Below are positions 54,456 to 54,629 of a stretch of 55,000 nt of DNA, piece after piece. The notes below the pieces were generated by a model. It was not told the DNA's origin, ran no database searches, and worked only from the letters and a program-made list of their open reading frames with translations. Numbering within the stretch: the first letter of the stretch is position 1; every line of letters begins with the position of its first letter. The position numbers and the translations under genes are program-made. The DNA is from Escherichia coli (GTDB lineage: Bacteria; Pseudomonadota; Gammaproteobacteria; Enterobacterales; Enterobacteriaceae): the NCBI RefSeq assembly GCF_003334355.1, contig NZ_QOWP01000026.1. One strand, given 5' to 3'.

Positions 54456-54629
54456 ATGAAAAAACTGGCACTTATTTTGTTTATGGGAACGCTTGTTTCC
54501 TTTTATGCCGATGCCGGGCGCAAACCCTGTTCTGGTTCGAAAGGGGGGATCTCACACTGTACGGCAGGCGGCAAATTTGTCTGTAATGATGGTTCTATTA
54601 GTGCCTCGAAAAAAACATGCACTAACTGA
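54456..54629 (+). CDS. ydcA: Small secreted protein YdcA (57 aa)
   Basis: Not in the ORF track (under 60 aa); found by reading. ATG with an RBS (ggag), signal peptide MKKLALILFMGTLVSFYADA, and five Cys in the mature part. Confidence 0.7.
   Translation: MKKLALILFMGTLVSFYADAGRKPCSGSKGGISHCTAGGKFVCNDGSISASKKTCTN

Follow-up and report, generated by a model that had tools for sequence, protein, structure and literature searches.

The small protein YdcA is encoded by a 57-codon, ATG-started open reading frame (ORF) at positions 54456-54629 (+) of the window, the 55,000-nucleotide stretch of Escherichia coli contig NZ_QOWP01000026.1 that was analysed, and its translation reads MKKLALILFMGTLVSFYADAGRKPCSGSKGGISHCTAGGKFVCNDGSISASKKTCTN. 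We propose that YdcA is a cationic, disulfide-stabilised binding or adaptor module of the periplasm, exported by the Sec pathway, of which E. coli keeps a domesticated chromosomal copy, and we put the probability of this reading at roughly 0.55. A role in binding is suggested because the same module appears duplicated in Dis2, a Legionella protein docked on the lipoproteins DotC, DotD and DotK under the outer membrane, because it occurs as an N-terminal addition to secreted nucleases and to a VasL-domain protein of a type VI secretion system (T6SS) remnant, and because temperate phages repeatedly carry it in slots expressed in the lysogen, often beside genes for secreted proteins or lipoproteins.

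Identity of the ydcA gene

The 57-codon ORF is the already known and annotated E. coli gene ydcA. Comparison of both annotation and translation showed its product to be 100% identical to YdcA of E. coli K-12 MG1655 (b1419), and the protein scores 147.3 bits against the NCBIfam equivalog NF007462 (cut-off 118) in an alignment that spans residues 1-57 of 57. The K-12 protein (NF007462 / PRK10040; PF27300 'YdcA') is encoded in the same gene order, cybB, rydC, ydcA, yncP, hokB/mokB/sokB and trg, and there is no substantive difference between the two loci at ydcA: over 489 aligned bases MG1655 and the window differ at four, one of which lies inside the ORF and is synonymous. The 501-bp ydcA region was found in nearly all complete E. 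coli genomes (5416/5426), with 'periplasmic protein' or 'YdcA family protein' as the product names in RefSeq. A Pfam-A scan of YdcA gave no match even at E <= 10, the release used evidently being without the recent model PF27300 (named YdcA), which is precomputed on cluster representatives 84-100% identical to the window protein.

A preliminary description of the window, made from the sequence, had reported the ORF together with a ribosome-binding site, which is the GGAGG read at 54447-54451, had placed it between cybB (53681-54211) and hokB (54701-54850), and had named the product YdcA; all of this holds. The interval between cybB and hokB also contains rydC and yncP, neither of which that description named. 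Its statement that the gene had been missed by a threshold of 60 amino acids applies to the ORF list then at hand but not to the public records, where the gene is annotated. As a whole, what had been observed is partly confirmed, the number of cysteines being wrong, and the interpretation given to it is supported. It had professed ignorance of the function, and the literature still does the same. Finding ydcA is in itself ordinary, as the gene was already annotated and nothing new is added by it. YdcA does rank, however, among the best conserved of the small E. coli periplasmic proteins whose function is unknown, and its family offers a modest lead, being phage cargo in several pathogens (Haemophilus, Moraxella, Acinetobacter), a fusion partner of nucleases and a probable relative of Dis2.

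Selection on the protein and expression of the gene

Conservation was determined over 139 representative proteins, taken from clusters at 50% identity that were retrieved with phmmer using the E. coli sequence alone and then re-aligned, without selection for cysteines. Conservation of the cysteine pattern had been put forward in the preliminary description as a check on the gene, and the pattern is indeed kept: all four cysteines are present in 136 of the 146 aligned domains of these proteins, the remaining 10 being truncated alignments. Invariant or nearly so are P24, C25, S26, K29, G30, G31, C35, F41, C43, D/N45, G46, S49, S51, K52 and C55. Position 34 is a histidine in 98/144, and many members have Y, R, S, K, Q, D or G there instead.

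As judged from a comparison of codons, the ydcA ORF was shown to be under strong purifying selection at the protein level. The comparison covered 27 gap-free conserved codons at six distant loci, namely E. coli ydcA, the copy in an E. coli P2-like prophage, an A. baumannii prophage, a P2/186-like phage, Moraxella Mcat13 and Haemophilus HP2. Differences at codon positions 1, 2 and 3 numbered 81, 62 and 235, and single pairs displayed 2-8 amino-acid changes against 11-21 changed third positions out of 27. It is this bias of the substitutions towards third positions that indicates selection on the protein. The pattern bears directly on the reading that the ORF is untranslated and owes its conservation solely to the DNA or RNA, for instance through a place in the regulatory neighbourhood of rydC or hokB. 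Such a reading could draw on the lack of direct evidence for the protein in the literature searched (the RiboReport supplement is without an entry and a search for b1419 gave nothing useful) and on a simple scan in which no consensus sigma-70 promoter was matched for ydcA. Yet homologues in unrelated contexts retain their amino acids while third codon positions are near saturation, the leader varies in sequence across the family while its character as a signal peptide is kept, and the family has thousands of members; the codon-position pattern already counts as refuting the untranslated reading, which we consider effectively refuted.

The transcript of ydcA has been measured by reverse-transcription quantitative PCR in three E. 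coli strains (PMC7642389), and in an RNA-seq study it was 10.7-fold up in a pnp mutant (PMC9927094). Deletion of ydcA in E. coli W resulted in poor growth at 300 mM 3-hydroxypropionate (3-HP), which was suppressed by deletion of yieP, and caused no growth defect in plain medium; the same paper cites other work according to which ydcA is acid-induced under the control of YdcI (PMC7642389). On the basis of the 3-HP-sensitive deletion described in this one paper, YdcA of E. coli may contribute to envelope or acid-stress tolerance. The phenotype needs a clean, complemented allele, since ydcA shares its upstream region with the divergent, YieP-repressed gene rydC. Other papers that mention a 'ydcA' were set aside, as the gene of that name on plasmid pS88 encodes a DNA methylase and is unrelated. 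The 'ydcA' of B. subtilis (a rhomboid protease) and that of the gonococcal genetic island are genes that we likewise take to be unrelated and to share only the name.

Leader peptide, mature domain and cysteines

The leader consists of MKK, a hydrophobic core of 13 residues, LALILFMGTLVSF (mean Kyte-Doolittle 2.41), and A-D-A directly before G21. In the family the A-x-A motif is conserved, with A18 in 90/131 and A20 in 97/137 aligned residues, and the conserved domain begins 3-5 residues past it. The Sec-like n-, h- and c-regions and the conservation of A-x-A agree with a signal peptide, as had been proposed, and cleavage after A20 would leave the approximately 37 mature residues that had been estimated. 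The predicted mature peptide of 37 residues has a mass of 3.6 kDa and a pI of 9.4, with six Lys/Arg against one Asp.

Five cysteines had been counted earlier, but there are only four, C25, C35, C43 and C55, in the spacing C-x9-C-x7-C-x11-C. The idea of a disulfide-stabilised periplasmic peptide is nevertheless supported, both by the essential invariance of these four cysteines and by the disulfides that the cysteines of Dis2 form. AlphaFold2 models the mature E. coli peptide as a short turn plus a beta-hairpin (mean predicted local distance difference test score, pLDDT, of 84). The window protein is a single domain and carries no catalytic domain.

Distribution of the family and domain fusions

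The family comprises 307 clusters at 50% identity in the single-sequence search and at least 2198 clusters at 90% identity in a profile search. It spans the gamma-, beta- and alpha-proteobacteria (Pseudomonadota), with members in Escherichia, Salmonella, Klebsiella, Proteus, Providencia, Xenorhabdus, Yersinia, Enterobacter, Acinetobacter, Moraxella, Psychrobacter, Actinobacillus, Haemophilus phages, Neisseria, Kingella, Eikenella, Legionella, Pseudomonas, Aeromonas, Chromobacterium, Comamonas and Leptothrix. The core of about 33 residues can be written as P-C-S-G-x-K-G-G-[IV]-x-x-C-x(3-4)-F-[VIL]-C-x-[DN]-G-x-x-S-x-S-K-K-x-C, with a cysteine spacing of C-x9(10)-C-x6(7)-C-x11-C that the window protein fits. 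It starts less than about 45 residues from the N-terminus, right after the leader, in 176 of 188 cases. The domain has a positive net charge in 96% (mean +3.1), many members carry a short C-terminal tail rich in Lys, Arg and Ser, 78% of the tails being net positive, and there are tandem members with two or three copies of the domain.

The module was also found fused to other domains, in all cases directly behind the signal peptide. The partner is Endonuclease_NS (PF01223) in three proteins (best E = 8e-33) and in P0268, which has a precomputed PF01223 match, the staphylococcal-nuclease-like SNase (PF00565) in one protein (E = 6.6e-24) and VasL in another (E = 5e-18), whose gene belongs to a degenerate type VI secretion cluster. 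The secreted nucleases (P0228, P0229, P0209, P0202 and P0268) thus have the same four-Cys module after the signal peptide as the window protein, which lacks their catalytic domain. The YdcA-VasL protein is 176 amino acids long and its gene (8001-8531 in loci L016-L018) lies at the end of the degenerate cluster (VipA, gp25-like). Its neighbour in 2/3 of these loci is an inserted P4-like satellite (AlpA, Phage_cap_P2, primase). Two repetitive proteins of 878 and 1961 amino acids, P0169 and P0218, were discarded, as the motif is lacking and they look like compositional false positives.

A relationship with the LDL-receptor class A domain was rejected as well. The matches to a VLDLR repeat are weak (E ~0.009) and cover only F-x-C-x-[DN]-G, and where that domain would be expected to have six cysteines and an acidic Ca-binding cluster (D-x-S-D-E), YdcA has four cysteines and no such cluster.

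Phage-borne relatives

The window protein matches the hidden Markov model of phrog_6000, a phage family of unknown function, with E = 2.5e-22 and 79.4 bits over profile positions 5-56 of 56. By tblastn, homologues were found in 27 GenBank phage records, of which 20 are from Moraxella catarrhalis, three from Acinetobacter, three from Haemophilus and one from Pseudomonas; the Haemophilus records are HP2, present twice, and S2, in which the match lies at the same coordinates as in HP2. The phage proteins share the domain, the size and the signal peptide with the window protein, but theirs are encoded in prophage cargo slots, whereas the window copy is chromosomal: its neighbours are aldA, gapC, cybB, rydC, hokB, trg and ydcI, and there are no phage genes among them.

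In A. baumannii prophages the ydcA-like gene has the tail tube/chaperone genes on one side and the tape measure gene on the other, with HicAB or SocA/Panacea genes next to it, and in Moraxella Mcat13 it has the same position. A second E. coli copy is found at the edge of a P2-like prophage, where one uncharacterised gene of 202 amino acids separates it from the gene of the YafO toxin. P2/186-like phages have a homologue downstream of the CI repressor gene, on the same strand. In HP2 an intact homologue of 60 codons, with a signal peptide, immediately follows the stop codon of cI and precedes orf1 and int, and from this position it lies in the pL lysogenic operon; in HP1 four other small ORFs occupy the slot after cI. 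No conserved partner gene was found beside the phage-borne copies, the only similarity being between two lipoproteins, and several of the neighbours are secreted proteins or lipoproteins. The anti-phage defence models of PADLOC-DB gave no match at E <= 1 for the window protein and two prophage homologues.

Llp of phage T5 and Cor of phi80 and N15 are small proteins that phages or lysogens make and direct to the envelope, where they work on the periplasmic side of the outer membrane. No sequence relationship between these proteins and YdcA was found, and the analogy is one of function only. That YdcA itself might be a bacterial lipoprotein of the Llp/Cor-like kind was rejected, since there is no lipobox: the leader ends in V-S-F-Y-A-D-A, followed by G-R-K-P-C, so that the first cysteine is mature position 5.

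Similarity to Dis2 of Legionella

When the family profile was compared with the sequences of the PDB, one family stood above noise, represented by chain AN of 7MUC/7MUD and related entries (E = 0.0023). The chain was deposited as 'neurogenic locus notch protein homolog' and is Dis2 (Lpg0823), a subunit of the outer-membrane cap in the Dot/Icm type IVB secretion machine. A Foldseek search of the PDB returned 7mud_AN and 7muc_AN at the top (query-normalised TM-score, TMq, 0.61-0.68, root-mean-square deviation 1.7-2.3 A, 38-39% identity), hhalign of the family against two Dis2-like metagenomic proteins gave a probability of 84% (E = 7e-6), and one such metagenomic protein carries a faint precomputed PF27300 match. 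The first lobe of Dis2 reads C-C-S-K-M-G-G-I-N-Y-C-D-S-S-A-G-R-L-V-C-N-N-G-F-Y-S, where YdcA has P-C-S-G-S-K-G-G-I-S-H-C-T-A-G-G-K-F-V-C-N-D-G-S-I-S. Each of these lines is weak on its own; taken together, however, they point the same way, the match of the motif is easily seen, and Dis2 probably carries a duplicated YdcA module. Apparently shared by both are a hydrophobic leader, which in Dis2 ends in A-F-A, and the succession C-x-x-x-G-G-[IV]-x-x-C...[VL]-C-N-[ND]-G-x-x-S. The proteins differ in that Dis2 is part of a secretion machine and has two lobes and five disulfides, whereas YdcA is one domain with four cysteines; moreover, the second lobe of Dis2 is without the second cysteine of the YdcA pattern, and the sequence similarity between the two proteins is marginal. 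No Dot/Icm genes occur in the annotated neighbourhood of ydcA, and the E. coli protein is not known to have partners of the Dis2 sort.

Dis2 was described as lying in the periplasm just beneath the outer membrane, with two lobes pinned by five disulfides whose density is clear (10.1101/2021.06.18.449039), and as contacting DotK, DotC and DotD (PMC12716638). The papers on Dis2 report no structural homologues and regard the protein as specific to the Legionellales. Its authors proposed residues 21-38 to be a transmembrane helix. The first residue modelled comes right after the A-F-A that closes this hydrophobic segment (22-39 in chain AN of 7MUC), and the segment looks like a cleavable Sec signal peptide of the kind predicted for the YdcA family. 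The gene of a Dis2-like protein in a metagenome contig (L011, 5887-6243) was called with a truncated start.

Proposed function and alternatives

In the reading that we favour, the YdcA precursor would be exported by Sec and cut after A20, and the four cysteines would be oxidised in the periplasm to two disulfides, locking a small beta-hairpin fold. The resulting cationic peptide, in which no catalytic features were recognised, would work at the outer membrane, on its periplasmic face, as a binding or adaptor module, and what E. coli carries on its chromosome would be a stand-alone version that has become domesticated and almost universal. The target might be a protein or lipoprotein complex, as in the case of Dis2, or a phosphate-rich polymer (DNA, lipopolysaccharide or phospholipid), all of which would fit the charge and the fusions. 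To know this target would explain a recurrent phage cargo gene, an extra domain of nucleases and possibly Dis2.

The main rival, doubtful though not far-fetched, is that the module binds nucleic acids or other polyanions in the periplasm, holding the substrate for the fused nucleases and, in lysogens, obstructing DNA on its way across the periplasm and so lowering transformation or superinfection, with the E. coli copy as a relic. In its favour, the sole recognisable enzymatic fusion partners belong to two unrelated nuclease families, the domain and the tails are rich in Lys and Arg, and the conserved K-G-G and S-x-S-K-K could contact phosphates. The distribution, with phage copies in Haemophilus, Moraxella and Acinetobacter and members in Neisseria, Kingella, Eikenella, Actinobacillus, Psychrobacter and Legionella, would also agree with it, many of these genera being naturally transformable. 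No DNA-binding fold was recognised for YdcA, however, the module in the solved Dis2 structure touches lipoproteins and not DNA, and the family is frequent, too, in genera that are not noted for transformation, such as Escherichia, Proteus, Providencia and Enterobacter. Unlikely in our estimation is a wider scheme, in which phages have spread the module as a periplasmic factor. By docking under the outer membrane, or by binding DNA in transit, it would block foreign DNA from entering (superinfection exclusion or inhibition of natural transformation); in Legionella a duplicate would have been co-opted as Dis2, nucleases would use the module for targeting and E. coli would have fixed a chromosomal copy. 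If this scheme were true, Dis2 would be one member of a family that numbers thousands of proteins and would not be specific to Legionella.

Metal binding, with Zn or Cu coordinated by a Cys4 or Cys/His site and YdcA serving to buffer metals in the periplasm, would account for the four invariant cysteines and the common His34, and in other genera rydC is located beside regulators of the FrmR/RcnR type, though at loci where ydcA is lacking. We nevertheless hold this to be very improbable, given that YdcA is predicted to reside in the oxidising periplasm, that the cysteines of Dis2 are all in disulfides, that His34 is replaced in many members and that no metal-related neighbours were seen at the loci examined. 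Less credible still is a secreted antimicrobial, that is, a bacteriocin-like or toxic cationic peptide. Small size, positive charge, richness in cysteine and a signal peptide are what such a peptide would have, and ydcA adjoins the hokB toxin locus while toxin-antitoxin genes lie near the copies in prophages. But at the loci examined there are no dedicated exporter, immunity or processing genes adjacent, a Sec signal alone leads only as far as the periplasm of a Gram-negative cell, nearly all complete E. coli genomes contain the gene, whose deletion leaves growth in plain medium unimpaired, and PADLOC gave no match.

Genomic context

The features of the ydcA locus, together with the ydcA-family ORF of HP2, are collected in Table 1. 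The intact gapC implies that the window is derived from an E. coli lineage other than K-12. A study of rydC reported that ydcA flanks this small RNA gene only in E. coli and Shigella and that Salmonella, C. koseri, E. fergusonii and E. albertii lack it at this position; in other genera, the regulators that flank rydC in the absence of ydcA are of the FrmR/RcnR type and respond to metal or formaldehyde. Taken with the distribution among phages, this suggests that ydcA was acquired in the E. coli lineage.

Table 1. Positions of ydcA, its parts and neighbouring features in the window, and of the homologous ORF in phage HP2
Feature	Position	Strand	Basis or remarks
gapC, intact 333-codon ORF	52491-53492	-	Pseudogene in K-12 MG1655, frameshifted in strain TA8571
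cybB	Longest ORF 53645-54211 (188 aa), annotated start 53681 (176 aa, MENKY...)	+	ORF list, RefSeq
Small RNA gene rydC, divergent from ydcA	54222-54285	-	Rfam RF00505, 92.5 bits, full length
AT-rich divergent intergenic region between rydC 5' end (-) and ydcA (+)	54286..54455	.	34% GC vs 50% for the whole window
Shine-Dalgarno GGAGG	54447..54451	+	4 nt 5' of ATG, read from sequence
ydcA coding sequence, 57 codons plus stop	54456..54629	+	ORF list, NF007462, MG1655 comparison
Signal peptide codons, residues 1-20, MKKLALILFMGTLVSFYADA, predicted cleavage after A20	54456..54515	+	n-, h- and c-region features; family A-x-A
Predicted mature 37-residue cationic four-Cys domain GRKPCSGSKGGISHCTAGGKFVCNDGSISASKKTCTN (PF27300 / phrog_6000 core)	54516..54626	+	Family conservation, AlphaFold2, fold matches
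yncP (b4774), 22-codon ORF MNLLVRCAGKIPALALTWTCRP	54655-54723	+	ORF list, MG1655/RefSeq annotation
GC-rich 9-bp hairpin GCGCGGGGA-AAA-UCCCCGCGC, inside yncP, between convergent ydcA and hokB	54674..54694	.	RNA fold
hokB/mokB/sokB type I toxin-antitoxin locus	54701-55000	-, sokB + at ~54898-54954	hokB 54701-54850, mokB 54741-54908
HP2 YdcA-family ORF	NC_003315.1 ~2486-2668 (locus L009 3001-3183)	- of record	Unannotated in RefSeq

The 170-bp region between rydC and ydcA presumably holds the promoters of both genes. A site for the RpoS holoenzyme was found there by systematic evolution of ligands by exponential enrichment (SELEX; PMC5493296), and the region is a target of YieP, which represses rydC, in chromatin immunoprecipitation with exonuclease treatment (ChIP-exo; PMC7642389).

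At the other end of ydcA, the Rfam 'sok' match (54845-55000) is partial and falls under the gathering score because the window ends there. The RNA fold of 54625-54715 has an energy of -30.8 kcal/mol (z = -2.3). The hairpin within it was not called in a terminator scan, its T-run being weak, and it is a candidate bidirectional terminator. This hairpin is contained in yncP, which runs into the 3' end of hokB from the opposite direction, and the pair yncP-hokB is listed in one paper as a convergent transcriptional overlap.
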